A stretch of DNA of 64,000 nucleotides, taken from IMG/VR virus record IMGVR_UViG_3300045988_119023, positions 32,471 through 96,470 of that record, one strand, 5' to 3'. This DNA comes from a virus. How positions within the stretch are numbered: position 1 is the stretch's first letter; each line of letters begins with the position of its first letter. Below the pieces are notes generated by a model. That model was not told the origin of the DNA. It did no database searches and worked only from the letters and a program-made list of their open reading frames with translations. This document shows, piece after piece, positions 4,449 to 62,798 of the stretch. The position numbers and the translations under genes are program-made.

Positions 4449-6687
4449 ATCAGATTGGAAGCCCTCAGAAAATATCCTAAAATATTTGAAATCGTGGGAA
4501 AAGTTCGAGCCTGAATTATATGACGACAAGAAGGGAAATATAACAATCGGGTACGGATTTCATCTTCCTCATCTTCTTAAAAAATACAAGAATGGTATAA
4601 CAGTAGAAGAGGCCGATAAGGAATTTGAAGGTGTAGTTAATACGTTTGTTCCGGAATTTATACGAAGAACTCCTAATTTCAAAAATCTAAACAATAATCA
4701 GCGAGATGCTTTGTTTAGTTTGTTTTACAACACAGGAGGATCAGAGTATTCTAAAAGCCCAATGCTTTTCAAATACCTTAAAGAAGGTGATTATGATAAG
4801 GCAGTGAAAGAAATAAACCACAATGAAAACGAGAAAGGTATGGGCGGTCAGAAGAAGCGCCGTGCCTTCGAGCGCCGGGTGTTCTCTACGCCAACAGACC
4901 AGCCTTGGACGGTAGACGACGACAGTAATTATGTCTTGGTTGAAGACAAGCCTGTAGAGGACGAATCTATAGAAAAAGATACTAATGATTCAAAGTATGA
5001 AGACGCTCGCCATGTGGAAGCTAAATATGGTTATACAGGTTATGTAGGTAGAGGATATGACGGAAATAAGGTCAGGGTATCTGATTCGAATATGAAATCA
5101 GTTGGTATCTCCAATAACGCTGATCCTAATAAGTGGTATGAATCCGTTAATCCAATATTAGACACTGATCCTATTAGTTTAATGGTCGATTTTATTCCTA
5201 CTGTGAAACGAATGTTGGATCCTAACAGGGAGAGATCAGGGGAAGATACAGCCACAGATTTTGAAGAGAAAATGTGGAAGGCTTACACGGATGGAGATAT
5301 AAGTAGATTACCGGCAAGCAAGTATCGTTTTGATGACGATGATGATGATGCTCAGTATGTAGGATTGCCTCAAGAACAAGCTATTTTGATACAATCTTTA
5401 TTAGATAAAGAGTATATGAACAACATGCTTGACAAAGCATATAAGGATGCTGATGAAAAAAGTAAACGAAAAATAAGAGATTACAAGAAGGTCCTTAATA
5501 AACTAAATAAAAATATATTTGAAAATCCAGGAAAATGGATTTTAGTAAATGAAGGTGTAAGTCCGTTTAGAGAAGAAGTATATGGTGACAATTTTGAAAA
5601 AGTAAACGAAGCTTCAGGATTAGGTGCGTTGAAGAATTTCAGCGTAAGATGGGATCCGGATGCTGGTATGTTGGATGTGAAGGATGATTATGATTTTAGC
5701 CGAAAGAAGATAGCAGAAGACATCATACCGGAAAGGGATGTCCCTCTTAGAATAAGGGAACGTATCAAATACGATCCTAAGAAAGGTAGTGTGCTTCGAA
5801 ATAATGACAAGGCTTTACCTAAAAGGTTTGTAAGGAAATACGAAGAAGGTGGCGTAGTTGGCAAGCAGCGTGAAGCATATGAATACTTTACTAATAAGCG
5901 TGGCATGTCCAAGATACAGGCGCTCGCCATCATAGGTAACCTCATGGCTGAATCCGGCCTTAAAGATGACATATACGGAGACAACAGAACATCATACGGC
6001 ATACAGCAATGGCATAATGAGCGCATGGATAAGTTGTTCAAGCACGCCAAAAAGAAAGGTCATTCTACACCAACATTCAAAGACCAACTTGAGTTCTTGG
6101 CTGACGAATACGAAGGGAAAACCGGATATTCTAATTTCTTATACACAAGAAAAGGAAAAGAAGGACCAGGGTATTACAACTACAGCCGGCAGGATTTTAT
6201 GAACGCCGATAACCTTAAGGATGCTGTAGTAGCTTGGAACCAAGGAGCAGGACGTCCTCATAAGAGTGTTATAAGAAATGATGACCGTTATGACTATGCT
6301 ATGGAAGTTGCTAAAAATCTTGGTTTGGAAATTGAAGAAAATTCCGTATCTTTGTATGGTCAAATGGGATTCGGAGATGATGGAGAAATAGCAGCATCGG
6401 TAACACTTCCAGAGGTAGAAGTGGCAGCCGCCCTCCCTTACCCGGAAGCCCAGTCCCAGGAGAGACAGTCCGAGGAAGAGAGATTCCGTACATGGACTGA
6501 AACGTATGGTAAAGACATCGTAAATCATTTACTGACGTTAGACGGGAAAAAGGATGGTGATGACAGTGATTACAGCATGATGTATAGACAGCATGAAAAA
6601 GAAAGCGAAGAGGATAAGAAAATGGCTTTGATTAATGCCGTGCTTCCCAATATTCAGCTTCGCATTAAAGGCGTCACTGATAATTAG
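4432..6687 (+). CDS. Virion-associated peptidoglycan hydrolase with two lytic domains: an N-terminal GH24 T4/lambda-type lysozyme and a central phage tail-lysozyme-like domain.
   Basis: Domain 1: SWEKFEPELYDDKKGNITIGYGFHL matches the E...D...T catalytic pattern of T4 lysozyme. Domain 2: GNLMAESGLKDDIYGDNRTSYGIQQWHNERMDKLFKHAKKKG resembles the phage tail lysozyme family (GNxxxESGxxxxxxGDxGxSxGxxQW). A strong AAGGAGGAGG sits before the ATG at 4432. Confidence 0.75.
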   Translation: MTKKNKSDWKPSENILKYLKSWEKFEPELYDDKKGNITIGYGFHLPHLLKKYKNGITVEEADKEFEGVVNTFVPEFIRRTPNFKNLNNNQRDALFSLFYNTGGSEYSKSPMLFKYLKEGDYDKAVKEINHNENEKGMGGQKKRRAFERRVFSTPTDQPWTVDDDSNYVLVEDKPVEDESIEKDTNDSKYEDARHVEAKYGYTGYVGRGYDGNKVRVSDSNMKSVGISNNADPNKWYESVNPILDTDPISLMVDFIPTVKRMLDPNRERSGEDTATDFEEKMWKAYTDGDISRLPASKYRFDDDDDDAQYVGLPQEQAILIQSLLDKEYMNNMLDKAYKDADEKSKRKIRDYKKVLNKLNKNIFENPGKWILVNEGVSPFREEVYGDNFEKVNEASGLGALKNFSVRWDPDAGMLDVKDDYDFSRKKIAEDIIPERDVPLRIRERIKYDPKKGSVLRNNDKALPKRFVRKYEEGGVVGKQREAYEYFTNKRGMSKIQALAIIGNLMAESGLKDDIYGDNRTSYGIQQWHNERMDKLFKHAKKKGHSTPTFKDQLEFLADEYEGKTGYSNFLYTRKGKEGPGYYNYSRQDFMNADNLKDAVVAWNQGAGRPHKSVIRNDDRYDYAMEVAKNLGLEIEENSVSLYGQMGFGDDGEIAASVTLPEVEVAAALPYPEAQSQERQSEEERFRTWTETYGKDIVNHLLTLDGKKDGDDSDYSMMYRQHEKESEEDKKMALINAVLPNIQLRIKGVTDN

Positions 6688-24069: not shown

Positions 24070-24267
24070 ATGAGAATCAGTACCATCAAACGTAACAACA
24101 GCATTCATCTTATGTATAAAAACATTATGAATGATTTAGGTCAATTAAGAACTGTAGTTTCAAAATCCTATATTTATAATCTGATACAAAATCAAACCGG
24201 ATTAAGTATCAGAACTATATCCCATGTCTTGAATCACACAAAAGAACAGGATACAGATTCTTTGTGA
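24070..24267 (+). CDS. Small helix-turn-helix protein (65 aa), candidate transcriptional regulator.
   Basis: TGLSIRTISHVLN resembles LacI/GntR-type HTH recognition helices (GVSxATVSRVLN). Confidence 0.4.
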   Translation: MRISTIKRNNSIHLMYKNIMNDLGQLRTVVSKSYIYNLIQNQTGLSIRTISHVLNHTKEQDTDSL

Positions 24268-24554: not shown

Positions 24555-25448
24555 ATGTGTAATAGTATTATTTTAAAATTAGAAGATATATCTTCTATCA
24601 AGAGGTATTTTGAGTTTATCTTGTCTCAAACAGAAAAAGGCGAAAAGTTTCCCATTAAACTTGATGATGTTTTCGCTCTTGTGTATAGTAGAAAGGATAA
24701 GGCTGTTAGAGCACTTATAGATAGCGATCAATTCATGCAAGATATTGATTATAAGGTTTTCCCCCTAAATGGGGAAAACTCAAATGGTGGTAGACCCTCT
24801 ATGGTCTACATGTTGTCTGTATCATGCTTAGAATATTTTATAGCCAGAAAAGTTAGATCAGTTTTTGAGGTTTATAGAAGTGTATTTCATGGATGTGTTT
24901 ATAATGAAAAAAGAAAATTAATACCTGATTTCTCCAATCCGGCAGAGGCAGCAAGAGCATGGGCCGATCAGTATGAAGCTGCTCAGAGAGCTATAGCTGA
25001 AAAATCTCAGGCAGAGGCAGAGAAGCAACAAGCCTTGAAAACAATAGAAGAGCATAAGCCCGATGTAGAATTTGCCGAGTCTTTTAGGAAAGTAGACCAT
25101 AACAATATGTGGCTAATTCGTGATATTGCAAAGAAGTTAGAGCAAAATGGTGTTATTATTGCTGAAAAGAATCTTCGCTCATTCCTTGAAGAGGCTAAAT
25201 TCATGTTTAGGAACGGTCTTGGCAAATGGGAGCTATATAGCAATGTTGTAGCTAAAGGGTATGGAGTGTATAGGTCTTATTTCATAGATAAGTATTCTGG
25301 TGATAGAATCAATCAACAAACCATATACATGACAGGCTCAGGATACGAAGTGACCTTAAATGGTATAAAAGGAAAACTCAAAAAATGTGTTTCTAAAATA
25401 TGGCAAGTTTGCTTAAGTTTATTTACAGGTAGTGTTTTAAAAGAATAA
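24555..25448 (+). CDS. Phage antirepressor-like protein with an ORF6N/Bro-N-like N-terminal domain and a KilAC C-terminal domain.
   Basis: N-terminal FMQDIDYKVFPLNGENSNGGRPSMVYMLS is an ORF6N-like signature. C-terminal GKWELYSNVVAKGYGVYRSYFIDKYSGDRINQQTIYMTGSGYEVTLNGIKG is KilAC-like. Confidence 0.6.
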   Translation: MCNSIILKLEDISSIKRYFEFILSQTEKGEKFPIKLDDVFALVYSRKDKAVRALIDSDQFMQDIDYKVFPLNGENSNGGRPSMVYMLSVSCLEYFIARKVRSVFEVYRSVFHGCVYNEKRKLIPDFSNPAEAARAWADQYEAAQRAIAEKSQAEAEKQQALKTIEEHKPDVEFAESFRKVDHNNMWLIRDIAKKLEQNGVIIAEKNLRSFLEEAKFMFRNGLGKWELYSNVVAKGYGVYRSYFIDKYSGDRINQQTIYMTGSGYEVTLNGIKGKLKKCVSKIWQVCLSLFTGSVLKE

Positions 25449-29062: not shown

Positions 29063-29277
29063 CAGTAGAAGAATTGGCTAACAAAAGATACGGTGGTGAG
29101 TTTGTTTTCATGTTTGGTCATCTTGAAGGTAGAACAAGATTCGTTTTTGAATGCTTTGATCCCAGGCCTGATCACGAAGGTAAAAATACCTATATGGTTT
29201 CTTATTTTGAGAAGGAACTTCATAGAAGAGATGTGGTAGATGTACCGTATTATATGAATGTTTCAGCGAAATCATGA
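29059..29277 (+). CDS. Hypothetical protein.
   Basis: ORF overlapping the upstream stop (ATGA). Confidence 0.4.
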   Translation: MTVEELANKRYGGEFVFMFGHLEGRTRFVFECFDPRPDHEGKNTYMVSYFEKELHRRDVVDVPYYMNVSAKS

Positions 29278-29478: not shown

Positions 29479-30114
29479 ATGGTTAGAATCGCATATTTCG
29501 GAACCGATGGCTGCCCCGGTCATCACGTTATTCCAATACGAGGTAAATTCACAGAAGAGGATATTAAGGTAATAGAATCTGTAGATTGTGATGATTTCTA
29601 TAAGGTGTTTGATGTCATGCGTTTTAAGATAGCTGAGTTTAAAGGATGGACGATATTGGGAATCCCGGCAAGCTTAGACGATTATAGACCTGGAAGCAAA
29701 ACCGTTATCTTCATAGAGGGTGAAGCTAACGAAGCTGATTTTATAGAAGTCACACAAGAGTATTCTTTTCTTAAAAATAAGGTAAAGAAACTTGCCGAAT
29801 TGTATCATGATGGAGAATGGCTTGCGACTGGTAAATTGAATCAAGATCCGCCTACTAACAAGGAGCGGTTTCAATTTACGTTAGACAAGGATGATATTAT
29901 TAACATGATTAGGGGAGTCGATTTAGATCCTTATTCTGATGTGGCGAATGAAATGGAGAAAATCGGATTGGGATCATCATCTGATTCTTCATATGAGGGT
30001 CCCACATGGTCTTGGTTTGTTAACAAAGTAGAACTTTGGCAGAAGAATAATGTATGGGATAGTTTCTCCGCTGAGTTTTTGTGGGGTTTGTATTGTAGGA
30101 TAAAGAAAGTATAG
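29479..30114 (+). CDS. Hypothetical protein (211 aa).
   Basis: ORF. Confidence 0.45.
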   Translation: MVRIAYFGTDGCPGHHVIPIRGKFTEEDIKVIESVDCDDFYKVFDVMRFKIAEFKGWTILGIPASLDDYRPGSKTVIFIEGEANEADFIEVTQEYSFLKNKVKKLAELYHDGEWLATGKLNQDPPTNKERFQFTLDKDDIINMIRGVDLDPYSDVANEMEKIGLGSSSDSSYEGPTWSWFVNKVELWQKNNVWDSFSAEFLWGLYCRIKKV

Positions 30115-30137: not shown

Positions 30138-30824
30138 ATGGAATTAAAAGATTTTAAAGATGTGGTTAGAGTAATGACAAAAGAAGAGTTCGAATCAACA
30201 ATCGAAGAAGATATTAAATTCGTTGAGGGATTCAAGAATTTCTTAAAACATGATGATGCCACGAGGATAGTAGAGCATATCAAGTCTGTGTTAGAAGCAT
30301 CAGTAGATTACTACTATCCTAATCATCCTGAAGTAGAATTTGAAAAAGATTTTAATATACAATACGATGTCAATAATATCTTGAACAAATACGGCCACAC
30401 CGAAATGGGTATGTATAAAATACAGCTCTATATAGAGAATATTTTGGGTAGTATTCAAAACAAGAAGCCTGTAGACGTGGGAGAAGTCTCTGACGGATAC
30501 CACACTTTCAATGAATTGTATCGGTATCGCATGTTGTATAACGCTGCCTTCTTTAATCTATTAGCCAGAAACGGACAGGTTGAAGTTTGCAAATCAAGGA
30601 GACACAGCGACGGAGAAAAATGCTTCGGTTCTGATGACTGGTTTATTGTGATGGCGATCCTGCCTACCGGTCAGGTATCTAATCACTATAAAAGCAAATA
30701 CTGGGATTTGTTTGATGTTCCTGAAAGAGAAACCGCTTTCGAATATGATGGCCATACACCAAATGAAGCCGCCGACAGACTTGAAAAGTATCTCAAACTG
30801 CCTCGTCATGGCATGACATTCTAA
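30138..30824 (+). CDS. Hypothetical protein (228 aa) with a conserved-looking DGYHTFNELYRYR motif.
   Basis: ORF. Confidence 0.45.
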   Translation: MELKDFKDVVRVMTKEEFESTIEEDIKFVEGFKNFLKHDDATRIVEHIKSVLEASVDYYYPNHPEVEFEKDFNIQYDVNNILNKYGHTEMGMYKIQLYIENILGSIQNKKPVDVGEVSDGYHTFNELYRYRMLYNAAFFNLLARNGQVEVCKSRRHSDGEKCFGSDDWFIVMAILPTGQVSNHYKSKYWDLFDVPERETAFEYDGHTPNEAADRLEKYLKLPRHGMTF

Positions 30825-30849
30825 AAGGCTTTAGAACAGCTTAAATTAG

Positions 30850-31180
30850 GTCGTAAGATAAAAAGAATCGATTGGGGTAAAAAGTATATCTGTATATCCG
30901 AAATAACATTAAAACAATATAATTTCATTATAAGGTTTTGATGTACCATAAATGGTCCGGATATTAGCCTAAGCCTTGAAACGAAGGCTACGTTATTTGA
31001 GAATAGATAGTTATCTACGGATGTTTACCCAAGTTCGTAGCTCTAAGGTAAGTGATTAAACAGTTCTGGTATTCAGGAACAGTGTTGCTTACGAAAACCT
31101 CTTATAACATTGGCGATGGGTACTAACAGGATGAAATATTCCTGACTTATGTTGAATAAACATTAAAAACGTTTGTAGAT
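30850..31180 (+). ncRNA. Candidate omega-RNA (guide RNA of the IscB OMEGA system) in the 356-nt non-coding gap upstream of iscB.
   Basis: Placement and size match known IscB loci, where the omega-RNA is encoded immediately 5' of iscB. The local hairpin AGCCTT/AAGGCT is one example of structure here. No fold was computed. Confidence 0.4.
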
Positions 31181-32401
31181 ATGGTGTACGTACAAGACAT
31201 AAATGGTAAACCTCTGATGCCAACAACGAGGCATGGCAAGGTTAGGAGACTGCTTAAAGAAAACAAGGCAGTCGTTGTAAACCTATGTCCGTTTACCATC
31301 AAATTAACGTACGTTACATCTGATTACAAACAAGAAATTGTGTTAGGCGTTGATGCTGGTACTAAACATGTTGGTTTATCAGCAACAACGAAAAGCAAAG
31401 AACTTTACAGTAGTGAAGTGATCCTTAGAAATGATATCGTAGATCTTTTGTCTACCAGAAGGGAGCTACGAAGAACAAGACGGAATAGATTGAGGTATAG
31501 AAAATCTCGTTTTGATAATAGAATAAAAAGTAGGCGTCCGGGATGGGTAGCACCTTCGGTGAAGTACAAAATAGACGCTCATATTCGTGTTATTGACAAT
31601 GTATGTTCCATATTACCAATATTTCGTATTGTTATTGAAGTAGCTCAATTTGATACTCAAAAGATTAAGAATCCTGAAATATTAGGTAAAGAATACCAGG
31701 AAGGTGATCAACTTGAGTTTTGGAACACAAGAGAGTATGTTTTAGCAAGGGATGGGCATAAATGTCAGTATTGTAAAGGAAAGTCAAAAGATAAGATCCT
31801 TAATGTCCATCATCTTGAATCCCGAAAAACCGGAGGCGATTCCCCTTCTAATCTTATTACCTTATGTAAAACCTGTCATAAAGAATACCATAAAGGTAAT
31901 ATAGATTTAAAGATCAAACGGGGATCGTCGCTTCGCGACGCGGCCGTAATGGGGATCATGAAATGGAAGTTGTATGAAGAACTGAGATCCAGATACGACA
32001 GAGTTTCTATGACGTTTGGTTACATTACGAAACATAATCGGATTAAATATGGGATTGAAAAATCCCATACATCCGACGCGTTTGTCATTTCTAAGAATAT
32101 TAATGCGAAACGAATCGAACGTCAATATTTAAAACGTTTAATTCGTAGACATAATAGACAAATACATAAAATGAAAATTTTAAAAGGGGGGAAGAAGAAA
32201 AACAATCAAGCTCCTTTTGAGGTTTTCGGTTTTAGGTTGTTTGATAAAGTGTTGTATAACAATAAAATATTCTTTGTTTATGGAAGGAGAAAATCAGGGA
32301 GTTTCAATATCAGGGATTTCAACGGAGAAAATTCAAAAGATGTTTCACGCAAAAAGTTTAAACTCATTAGAGGGAAGAGGCATCCGATTATATTAAAGTA
32401 A
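31181..32401 (+). CDS. iscB: IscB, an IS200/IS605-family OMEGA RNA-guided nuclease. Domain order is PLMP, RuvC-I, Arg-rich bridge helix, RuvC-II, HNH, RuvC-III.
   Basis: PLMP motif in NGKPLMPTTRHGKVRRLL. RuvC-I: IVLGVDAGTKHVGLS. Bridge helix: RRELRRTRRNRLRYRKSRFDNR. RuvC-II: RIVIEVAQFD. HNH: CQYCKG...NVHHLESRKTGGDSPSNLITLCKTCHKEYH. RuvC-III: KSHTSDAFVIS. Length 406 aa. Confidence 0.85.
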   Translation: MVYVQDINGKPLMPTTRHGKVRRLLKENKAVVVNLCPFTIKLTYVTSDYKQEIVLGVDAGTKHVGLSATTKSKELYSSEVILRNDIVDLLSTRRELRRTRRNRLRYRKSRFDNRIKSRRPGWVAPSVKYKIDAHIRVIDNVCSILPIFRIVIEVAQFDTQKIKNPEILGKEYQEGDQLEFWNTREYVLARDGHKCQYCKGKSKDKILNVHHLESRKTGGDSPSNLITLCKTCHKEYHKGNIDLKIKRGSSLRDAAVMGIMKWKLYEELRSRYDRVSMTFGYITKHNRIKYGIEKSHTSDAFVISKNINAKRIERQYLKRLIRRHNRQIHKMKILKGGKKKNNQAPFEVFGFRLFDKVLYNNKIFFVYGRRKSGSFNIRDFNGENSKDVSRKKFKLIRGKRHPIILK

Positions 32402-32438
32402 ATGAACGGATTTAATAAATTTAATAGAAAAACGTATC

Positions 32439-32744
32439 ATGTATAATAAAGAAATAGTAATATGCGCGGCTATCTGGGTGCAGGACGGCAAGAAGCGTCC
32501 TCATCAGCCCACCAATATACCATCCGGCGCCGTATTTTGTGGATTGAGACATTGTTCTATCATTTCTCAGTTTGCGGCATACGGTATAGCTCATAAAAAC
32601 CGCAGTGTTCAAGGATTTTTGACAAGCAAGAACCGGTTTCTGACGAGAGAAGAAGCGTCTGAGCTTGTTAAGAACAATAATCAGGAGATGGTAGTAGATA
32701 GGAATGCTATTAGAGAACAATTGTATTCCGAAGATTTATATTAA
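32439..32744 (+). CDS. Hypothetical protein (101 aa).
   Basis: ORF immediately 3' of iscB. Confidence 0.4.
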   Translation: MYNKEIVICAAIWVQDGKKRPHQPTNIPSGAVFCGLRHCSIISQFAAYGIAHKNRSVQGFLTSKNRFLTREEASELVKNNNQEMVVDRNAIREQLYSEDLY

Positions 32745-50335: not shown

Positions 50336-51355
50336 TCATCGTTTTATCTTTTTAGACGGATCCCAATCCGAAGAGAAAGGGCATTCGTTTTTGTTATGTA
50401 ATCCAAAGTCGCAATAATAACACAGTGCTGACGGGCAGGGTAGCTTGTTTTGCGAAACAGGCTGGCTCAGGGTGGCACGCCGCTTGCTATACCTGGCTCC
50501 TTCTGCTCCCTGGATGTACGCTTGAAATGATTTTACACTATTATCTTCAAAATCATACATTTTAGACAAAGTGTCATTTAGCATCTCTATAGATTTTGTT
50601 TTACGTTCCTCATCCACCTTAACCTTTTGGTACTGCCTGGTCCTGGTAAAGAAATAGATGTTCATATCTGGAAGAACTCCACCATATTTTCTATAGATGT
50701 AAAATGAATATATAGGATGCTGTAAATTCGTTTCCAACTTCTTAGAATCAAAAACCTTATTACCTGATTTCCAATCTATGACATAATGGTGAACTACGTT
50801 CTTGCTTTTTATAGCCAGATGAAGGTCTACCGATCCTACTATGTACACATGAGTATGAATTACTCCATTTATGTTAACAGGCTTAGGAAGACGGTACGGC
50901 AGCACAAAATCTTCTTCAACTCCAACTATAGCGCCGTGTCTGATAAGTTTCTCGCAGGGATTAAGATCACTATCAGCTATCATAAACCTATTGCCGTCTT
51001 TTTTGAACAGATCCACAATCCAAGCAAGAAGCTCTCCAGATTGCTTCATGGCTATCATCATATTTTCCGGTGATTGCCAAGGTATGTCTTCTTGGTAAGC
51101 ATAGTAACTTATAGCTTCCCCCAGGTCTTTGCCAGAAGGCTGTCTTCCGTTCTTGAAGAAGTATTCCAGTGTCTTATGAATAACCGTACCATAAGACGTA
51201 GCTTCTTGTTTTTCCGTAGACCTTTTGCCCTCCACGTAAGTTTTATACCATTTCATTGGACAAGTAAGAAACGTATCTATCTGGGAATAAGATATGGCAA
51301 GACGTTTCACACCATTAAACTCCTTATATAGCAAATGCGTTTCCGGGACCATCAT
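50336..51355 (-). CDS. Cas4-like PD-(D/E)xK nuclease with a four-cysteine (Fe-S type) cluster.
   Basis: Motifs: GSVDL, then VIDWKSG, then QHPIYSFY (QxxxY). N-terminal TCPMKWY plus C-terminal CPSALCYYCDF...NECP cysteines. Confidence 0.65.
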   Translation of the reverse strand: MMVPETHLLYKEFNGVKRLAISYSQIDTFLTCPMKWYKTYVEGKRSTEKQEATSYGTVIHKTLEYFFKNGRQPSGKDLGEAISYYAYQEDIPWQSPENMMIAMKQSGELLAWIVDLFKKDGNRFMIADSDLNPCEKLIRHGAIVGVEEDFVLPYRLPKPVNINGVIHTHVYIVGSVDLHLAIKSKNVVHHYVIDWKSGNKVFDSKKLETNLQHPIYSFYIYRKYGGVLPDMNIYFFTRTRQYQKVKVDEERKTKSIEMLNDTLSKMYDFEDNSVKSFQAYIQGAEGARYSKRRATLSQPVSQNKLPCPSALCYYCDFGLHNKNECPFSSDWDPSKKIKR

Positions 51356-62522: not shown

Positions 62523-62798
62523 TTAATTAGTTGATTTCTTTCCTTTCTCTATACTGTTTTTAAATCTTTCAGAACACCACTGCAAAACGTCCATCATCAT
62601 CATCTCATTATTAGATAAGATACCTTTTATAACTAACGCCAATTGATGCTGTGACATTCGTTGGCTCATATCAAATCTTCTTTCCTCTTCATTTACTATC
62701 GTAGCCACGAAATACTTACACCCCTCCAAATGTGTCAGGGCTTCAATCATGGCTTCTTTAATCTCTTTTTCTTCCATCCTGTTTGTTTTTTTGGACAA
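62523..62798 (-). CDS. Hypothetical protein.
   Basis: ORF. Confidence 0.4.
   Translation of the reverse strand: MSKKTNRMEEKEIKEAMIEALTHLEGCKYFVATIVNEEERRFDMSQRMSQHQLALVIKGILSNNEMMMMDVLQWCSERFKNSIEKGKKSTN

Follow-up and report, generated by a model that had tools for sequence, protein, structure and literature searches.

The 64,000-nucleotide stretch of viral DNA analyzed here (IMG/VR record IMGVR_UViG_3300045988_119023, positions 32,471–96,470; hereafter the window) carries, at 30894–32438 on the plus strand, a 1,545-bp mobile element made up of an omega-RNA scaffold, an iscB gene and a short tail. The feature is most probably an intact, non-autonomous element of the ISC type (IS200/IS605 superfamily of insertion sequences) in an epsilon crAss-like gut phage, encoding IscB together with its omega-RNA. 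As in the ISC and IS200/IS605 groups, it is discrete, present in some genomes and absent from others, and found at many sites with identical ends, beside a short motif and without target duplication; no Y1 (HUH) TnpA transposase was identified in cis. Earlier work has established IscB and omega-RNA, the ISC transposons with their N|ATGA-type targets, and the homing model (Kapitonov et al., 2016, PMC4810608; Meers et al., 2023, PMC10055086; PMC9755519; PMC13565253), and since IscB and its omega-RNA are already well characterized, the identification itself is not new. No paper that connects IscB with crAss-like phages turned up in a literature search. On ∼150-kb gut crAss-like contigs lie thousands of near-identical proteins, named "RRXRR protein" or "hypothetical protein" at most. 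One IscB lineage is therefore seen to be very abundant in human-gut crAss-like phages, and the sequenced population amounts to a natural experiment, with exact ends, a predicted ATG target-adjacent motif (TAM) and many guide-target pairs among co-circulating phages.

The 406-amino-acid open reading frame (ORF) at 31181–32401 (plus strand) is, by its sequence, IscB. It matches the NCBIfam model NF040563 (guided_IscB, "RNA-guided endonuclease IscB") over residues 2–303 with 351.9 bits (E = 2.8e-105; curated cutoff 175 bits), and Pfam returns RRXRR (199 bits) and HNH (40 bits). A first-pass annotation of the window had described an intact IscB with every hallmark motif in order, and all of them are present: PLMP at residues 11–14, RuvC-I D58, an Arg-rich bridge helix at 93–111, RuvC-II E153, the HNH residues C195/C198, H210/H211, N224 and C229/C232, and RuvC-III H296/D299, with HNH inserted in the split RuvC domain. 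The profile search that it had proposed as a check returns the IscB family, not an HNH endonuclease devoid of RuvC. The best relatives of solved structure are OgeuIscB-type chains (E = 5e-43 with the single sequence, 4e-50 with a profile), whose motifs coincide with those of the window protein in the alignment over residues 2–335. The C-terminal ∼100 residues (302–406), unassigned to any domain, are conserved among relatives and are presumed to form the TAM-interaction domain. IscB is under strong purifying selection: comparison of the window gene with 10 other copies gives a ratio of nonsynonymous to synonymous substitution rates (dN/dS) of 0.06–0.17 at dS of up to 1.4, and a 406- or 408-residue ORF is retained in 69 of 78 iscB copies. 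RNA-guided, TAM-dependent cleavage of double-stranded DNA by this protein would fit the geometry of its insertion sites, which supports it indirectly.

The omega-RNA is encoded directly 5′ of the ORF, where it had been expected. A covariance scan gives a full-length match to the Rfam HEARO RNA (RF02033, model positions 1–211) at 30894–31127, on the same strand as iscB and ending 53 nt 5′ of its ATG. The score is 103.3 bits (E = 1.7e-21) against a gathering score of 83 bits, and this is the sole Rfam match within the window. HEARO, or omega-RNA, is an established partner of IscB (PMC4810608; PMC10055086; PMC9755519; PMC13565253), and the omega-RNAs of 16 relatives, at 89–113 bits, all exceed the RF02033 threshold. 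Folding of 16 copies with RNAalifold yields 64 pairs, 7 of them with compensatory changes on both sides, concentrated in three hairpins; this covariation support is modest because the sequences are closely related and pseudoknots lie outside the assessment. Between the Rfam match and the iscB start, a conserved hairpin (CAGGAT..ATTCCTG) at 31133–31150 has two pairs that switch from GC to AU on both sides in 6–7 of the 16 copies (alignment A3, columns 255–272), and it probably forms the terminal stem at the 3′ end of the omega-RNA. The first-pass annotation had assigned a 356-nt ORF-free gap, 30825–31180, to this non-coding region. Just two ORFs overlap the gap, both short (42 and 45 aa), on the minus strand and not credible, but only 30894–31180 belongs to the element; 30825–30893 is the remnant of an interrupted gene and holds the guide.

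Damaged omega-RNAs occur in three copies, all at the same locus as the window's. L002 (related loci are cited by such L numbers) has lost the first ∼50 nt of the scaffold (L002:5713–5761) and retains an intact IscB ORF. Similarity to the window begins only at 31138 in L006 and at 31238 in L019, so that the omega-RNA is wholly or partly lost; the IscB ORF of L006 is intact, and that of L019 is matched over residues 20–406 only.

The boundaries of the element were delimited against phages that lack it, as had been recommended. A protein scan of viral contigs gave 336 IscB relatives, from which 79 loci (79%–97% amino acid identity) were fetched and kept; ∼190 related phage loci overall entered the comparison. 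The flanks of the window are ∼90% identical to crAssE-Sib (OR575929.1; human gut, 151 kb), which Babkin and colleagues (PMC11054128) describe as an epsilon crAss-like phage whose hosts are predicted to be Bacteroidia, and the setting is, as the first-pass annotation had it, a phage accessory region. Identity to crAssE-Sib (Sib) runs to 30897 and picks up again near 32436; in place of the element Sib has 388 bp, comprising the last 116 bp of a DUF2829-annotated gene and a 91-aa Cys-rich ORF. The left edge is sharp in the 79 related copies, where conserved sequence opens at ATATCCGAAATAAC (30894) after at least 20 unrelated left flanks; a second subfamily opens ATAATCG..., and the element starts with ATA in both. 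On the right, the tail is conserved beside differing flanks in L023, L024, L025 and L076 and ends just before ATG in every family. The break in homology to Sib, the left edge and the right edge before ATG together place the element at 30894–32438. In the uninterrupted alleles of the L025, L032, L044 and L015 families the flanks are contiguous, showing clean insertion with zero target duplication. Close relatives differ in whether they have the element, and crAssE-Sib, the nearest deposited genome, is without it; tblastn found no IscB in that record. At the omega-RNA-proximal end the fold of single-stranded DNA is strong (−11.8 kcal/mol, z = −3.3).

The IscB-distal end (32402–32438, plus strand) is an A-rich tail, the end that Meers et al. 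name the transposon "LE". It is followed by ATG (32439–32441), which is both the putative TAM and the start codon of a downstream gene for a 101-aa protein (32439–32744). In the window and most families the tail directly abuts the start codon of the downstream gene, so the element replaces the native leader of that gene; insertions just 5′ of start codons may be the surviving ones. The tail in the L025 family ends in 16 nt (TAACGCAAAAAAGGAA) that nearly repeat the family's own guide and left flank (TAACGCAAAAATAAGGAA). This near-repeat (L025:5690–5711 and L025:7240–7258), which places a near-copy of the target beside the far-end ATG, was not seen in other families. A general resemblance of insertion sites to the element tail was considered and rejected (summed alignment score 150, against 146 for shuffles; p = 0.26).

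In the IscB elements of Meers et al. (PMC10055086), the scaffold makes up one end of the transposon, the sequence just 5′ of the element serves as the guide, and the TAM adjoins the opposite end; the GstIscB TAM, TTCAT, reads ATGAA in the IscB orientation. Several ISC families target N|ATGA, with no duplication on insertion, and most ISC elements are non-autonomous (PMC4810608). The window element shows the same arrangement. Taking a guide length of 16 nt from characterized IscBs, the guide segment of the omega-RNA is TAAAAAGTATATCTGT at 30878–30893 (plus strand), directly 5′ of the scaffold. It is flanking phage DNA, coding sequence of a DUF2829 domain, and the same sequence is present in phages without the element. 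The uninterrupted allele reads N16|ATG at every one of at least 15 independent left junctions, and ATG follows every right junction, those of mini-elements included. As ATG makes up a share of 0.0195 of the window's trinucleotides, the contribution of chance is negligible. We infer the rule flank|ATA...element...tail|ATG, in which the TAM would be ATG (CAT on the transposon strand) and the element's own end motif (the transposon-encoded motif, TEM), ATA, is one base off it. The predicted TAM matches the published N|ATGA and the ATGAA of GstIscB.

The exact 22-mer around the guide is present in 109 viral contigs, where it is followed by ATG in 106, by the element in 2 and by ATA in 1. The search for guide matches in competing phages, which the first-pass annotation had called for, found a perfect, ATG-flanked target in 106 of 109 related contigs. 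About 90 of the 109 are fully uninterrupted. In ∼10 the element sits at another junction, 203 bp downstream, and in L095 and L103 it sits 21 bp downstream of the window's junction. The window itself holds perfect ATG-flanked targets of sibling guides at 29575–29590 (L021/L022), 30495–30510 (L016) and, on the minus strand, 50340–50355 (L023), and near-matches at 29094–29109 (L004), 30618–30633 (L010) and 62693–62706 (the L045 group), so that the window phage could in principle be cut by the nucleases of its siblings. To judge from these sequences, the geometry for RNA-guided cutting of a co-infecting relative is present in both directions, and the earlier suggestion of a role in homing or inter-phage competition fits this arrangement of guide, target and TAM. 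Within the window, the guide has nothing better than a match with 3 mismatches elsewhere. No support was found for host targeting, which had also been suggested, although no bacterial genomes were searched with the guide itself.

Changes at target sites were also seen. At the window's target, ATA replaces ATG in Sib (L001 4967–4969) and in one other contig, and the L005-type target (equivalent to Sib 5097) has TTG or a deletion in L188, L138 and L120; such uninterrupted alleles with a changed TAM could be escape alleles. The guide segment has small deletions, of 4 to 27 bp, directly beside the scaffold in L003, L008, L011, L009, L066, L071 and L075, near position 5700 in most of these loci. 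Scars of self-cleavage, or guide erosion, would fall next to the scaffold in this way.

The relatives of this IscB are almost all found on phage contigs of 80–160 kb, several of which hold two copies (in L038 they are 2.7 kb apart), and close relatives (>80% identity) were found only on phage contigs. The related copies occupy at least 20 insertion sites. At the window's locus one right junction is shared by nine left junctions, which in window coordinates are 29059, 29109, 29273, 29590, 30510, 30632, 30893 and 30893 + 21 bp, the ninth being at Sib position 5096. They represent nested guide-side deletions, each ending at an N|ATG site. The L010 junction adjoins IscB sequence that is ∼100% identical to copies with another junction, which indicates that junction turnover is fast relative to sequence divergence. 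Mini-elements of ∼380 bp that lack IscB occur at L023:3994–4380, L015:1113–1500, L044:608–1000, L078:9451–9840 and L079:9732–10120, and none in the window. They consist of a full-length HEARO RNA (89–113 bits), ∼60 nt with a GC-rich hairpin and the usual tail before ATG; each has its own flank-derived guide, and they would need IscB in trans. The first-pass annotation had left open a solo or a domesticated element. Presence or absence among relatives, at least 20 sites, genomes with two copies, the mini-elements and the flank-derived guide bear out a mobile element and speak against domestication.

Among species-representative genomes (one for each of 185,579 species), the sole relative above 60% identity lies on a 20-kb contig of "Vibrio olivae" CECT 8064 (L190, NZ_JBHMEP010000019.1). 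As this contig is ∼96% identical over 10.8 kb to the phage loci L042 and L040, it is phage DNA, probably contaminating gut-phage DNA in the assembly. IscB homologs have gone unrecognized in deposited phage genomes, for example those of Clostridium phage c-st, of Ralstonia and Staphylococcus phages and of cyanophages (≤52% identity), under the annotation "HNH endonuclease" or "hypothetical protein"; the nearest public-database proteins are named "RRXRR protein [Bacteriophage sp.]".

A mechanism consistent with these observations would begin with read-through from the co-oriented upstream genes, yielding an RNA in which the flank 30878–30893 is fused 5′ to the scaffold. IscB with that RNA would cut TAAAAAGTATATCTGT followed by ATG, which is the uninterrupted allele of most sibling phages. 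Precise excision of the element would leave the same cuttable sequence, TAAAAAGTATATCTGT plus ATG; the exact donor joint, the guide joined to the ATG of the right flank, would read ...TATATCTGT|ATGTATAATAAAG. The phage's own copy would be spared because the guide sequence is there followed by ATA, the first bases of the element. Recombinational repair from an element-bearing genome would then restore or spread the element, which amounts to homing between sister genomes or co-infecting phages. New sites and nested one-sided deletions would arise most simply from a Y1 (TnpA) transposase acting in trans at N|ATG sites. Such a deletion might follow a second, upstream insertion, with recombination between the direct copies, or be a TnpA-type adjacent deletion that joins the element end to the DNA past a nearby TAM; either route would give the element a new guide.

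What mobilizes an element with no transposase in sight is the puzzle that this locus raises. No transposase or TnpB was found among 20 window ORFs scanned against Pfam, in line with the first-pass statement that no tnpA lies nearby. Most ISC elements are without TnpA (PMC4810608; PMC9755519), so its absence does not exclude ISC membership. Several results nevertheless weigh against an active ISC-type element of the kind proposed. Two approximate IS200/IS608 probes, run by tblastn against the window and ∼80–190 related loci, a weak test, gave only noise for TnpA (E ≥ 0.38), and for crAssE-Sib only TnpB genes, two in number, have been reported, with no TnpA and no IscB (PMC11054128). At the IscB-distal end neither strand has a significant hairpin such as Y1 transposases bind (z = 0.5–0.7), and a single 5-bp stem there is not conserved in relatives. 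In the protein, residues 302–406 have no PDB sequence match, the profile alignment ends at residue 335, and the AlphaFold2 model is unusable (mean pLDDT 38, from a 23-sequence alignment of 86%–97% identity). The ATG TAM is deduced only from insertion sites. A Bacteroidia-type promoter motif (TTTG..TAnnTTTG) is not found within 6 kb 5′ of the guide, the nearest being at 24261 and 24402. Finally, the element-bearing allele at the exact window site is present in 2 of the 109 contigs and, besides the window, in 4 contigs in all, a rarity which implies that any drive is weak or recent, or that the loss of the DUF2829 domain costs enough to offset it.

A competing explanation does without a Y1 transposase. 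IscB might cut ATG-flanked sites and phage recombination do the rest, so that spread and new junctions arise in the absence of any such enzyme. The lack of a detected TnpA in the window, in related loci and in the published account of crAssE-Sib (PMC11054128) would then be explained, as would the IscB-distal end devoid of a recognizable hairpin, the confinement of close relatives (>80%) to phage DNA (the Vibrio olivae contig being 96% identical to phage loci), the nine left junctions sharing one right junction, and the L010 junction beside IscB sequence ∼100% identical to differently joined copies; TnpA-independent spread of IS605 within a plasmid population is also cited in PMC13565253. However, the ends are base-identical at at least 20 unrelated sites and four families show clean insertions, which is the signature of a site-specific strand transferase and not of break repair. 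Moreover, a new site has as yet no matching guide, without which IscB does not cleave, and left flanks and tail share no general similarity that could prime recombination (p = 0.26). Spread by cutting and recombination without a transposase is therefore judged unlikely, although it is the strongest competitor of the ISC-type element.

Domestication of IscB by the phage as a weapon against competitors, or as a regulator, with transposition given up, would account for a phage-restricted lineage under strong purifying selection and a guide that matches sibling phage genomes. It is nonetheless very improbable. At every one of the at least 20 sites the guide is whatever flank adjoins; the window site is rarely occupied, and the insertion there breaks up a conserved gene; several copies are present in some genomes, and there are mini-elements that lack IscB. 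Since every catalytic residue is intact, the protein is no nuclease-dead regulator. A locus in decay and no longer active, or simply an HNH homing endonuclease of the ordinary, protein-guided kind, might be suspected from the annotation of deposited homologs as only "HNH endonuclease" or "hypothetical protein" and from the related iscB copies that are truncated or frameshifted (L014, L068 and L073). Against this stand a full-length ORF with all RuvC and HNH motifs at twice the IscB family cutoff, a full-length omega-RNA above threshold and a dN/dS of ∼0.1, which together leave this explanation hardly any credibility.

A bolder proposal is that the phage-restricted IscB acts, in populations of epsilon crAss-like phages, as a natural RNA-guided gene drive that repeatedly re-programs its guide through ATG-anchored deletions of neighboring accessory genes, with no Y1 transposase of its own and possibly none anywhere. 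It is put forward tentatively, as a possibility with the odds against it. If true, the ATG-flanked targets of co-infecting siblings would be cut, the element copied in, and older alleles overwritten by newer ones. "Non-restorative homing" is the term used in PMC13565253, a 2026 review, for such copying, and OMEGA homing between co-infecting phages appears there as a theoretical category only; with the present population, non-restorative homing of OMEGA elements between phage genomes becomes directly testable. A 406-aa IscB with a three-base TAM would, if active, be of interest to genome-editing groups. The guide-changing nested deletions, the minis that retain only an omega-RNA and the recurrent stops 5′ of the guide are parts worth follow-up.

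The ISC-type element shares much with insertion sequences of the ISC2 type (Kapitonov et al., 2016, PMC4810608), which are likewise ∼1.5 kb and IscB-only, have no terminal inverted repeats, target duplication or TnpA in cis, and insert directly 5′ of a short motif (N|ATGA in their case, N|ATG here). Those elements reside in bacterial chromosomes, whereas the present lineage is apparently restricted to gut phages; here, conservation of the motif is limited to its first three bases, and the IscB-distal end is without a recognizable hairpin. With GstIscB of ISGst5 (Meers et al., 2023, PMC10055086) it has in common a scaffold at one end, a guide supplied by the flank, a TAM at the other end, an own end motif a base or two off the TAM, co-oriented upstream genes and the catalytic D58 at the same position, H209/H210 of GstIscB corresponding to H210/H211 here. 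It differs in that no partner TnpA was identified. The likely target also differs, being a co-infecting sibling phage or sister genome here and a bacterial sister chromosome in their system.

The OgeuIscB-omega-RNA complexes (PDB 7UTN, 7XHT and related entries) have the same domain order, align over residues 2–335 (E = 1e-41 to 4e-50) and contain an RNA of the same Rfam family. OgeuIscB is longer (496 aa, against 406), the window protein being without ∼30 residues after the bridge helix, and the C-terminal TAM-interaction regions have no detectable sequence similarity. The TAM of OgeuIscB, NWRRNA, is unlike ATG. The free-standing HNH and GIY-YIG homing endonucleases of T-even phages (Seg and Mob) are similar in being selfish nuclease genes of a phage accessory region whose product could cleave the allele of a co-infecting relative that lacks the endonuclease, the gene then being copied in with flanking markers. 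They differ in that recognition here would be by RNA, not protein, with the insertion itself separating self from non-self, and in that defined transposon ends and numerous insertion sites characterize the window element. The ∼380-bp minis, which occur in related loci and not in the window, resemble standalone omega-RNAs and PATE-like miniature IS200/IS605 derivatives.

The element lies among small co-oriented genes of unknown function, between a gene for an ANT/KilAC antirepressor (24555–25448) and one for a 2,138-aa protein that corresponds to an annotated structural protein of Sib. The antirepressor gene, together with the repressor and anti-repressors reported for the phage group of crAssE-Sib (PMC11054128), makes the "lytic-type" label of the first-pass annotation doubtful. 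The interrupted gene (30138–30893, plus strand) encodes a WDGH domain (Pfam, 125.6 bits) followed by DUF2829. Its ORF stops early at TAA 30822–30824, and 30825–30893 once coded for part of the DUF2829 domain, now lost; the corresponding codon of Sib is GAA, and the Sib reading frame continues into the DUF2829-annotated gene. The same GAA to TAA change at the WDGH/DUF2829 boundary, ∼70 nt 5′ of the guide, is found in the window, L003, L020/L124, L084 and L095, and L103 has an independent CAG to TAG change one codon later than the stop of the other alleles. All alleles with IscB inside the DUF2829 domain carry such a stop, and none of 113 uninterrupted alleles has either one. This recurrence suggests that selection favors stopping translation short of the guide and scaffold, or tidying up the truncated protein.

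One related locus, L133, has a deletion in which the start of the Cys-rich ORF is fused to the 3′ part of the gene that begins at 32439, with no IscB. The joint lies ∼145 nt downstream of the 22-mer match, at a GTTTGTT/GCTTGTT microhomology; the locus is prone to deletion even when it lacks the element.

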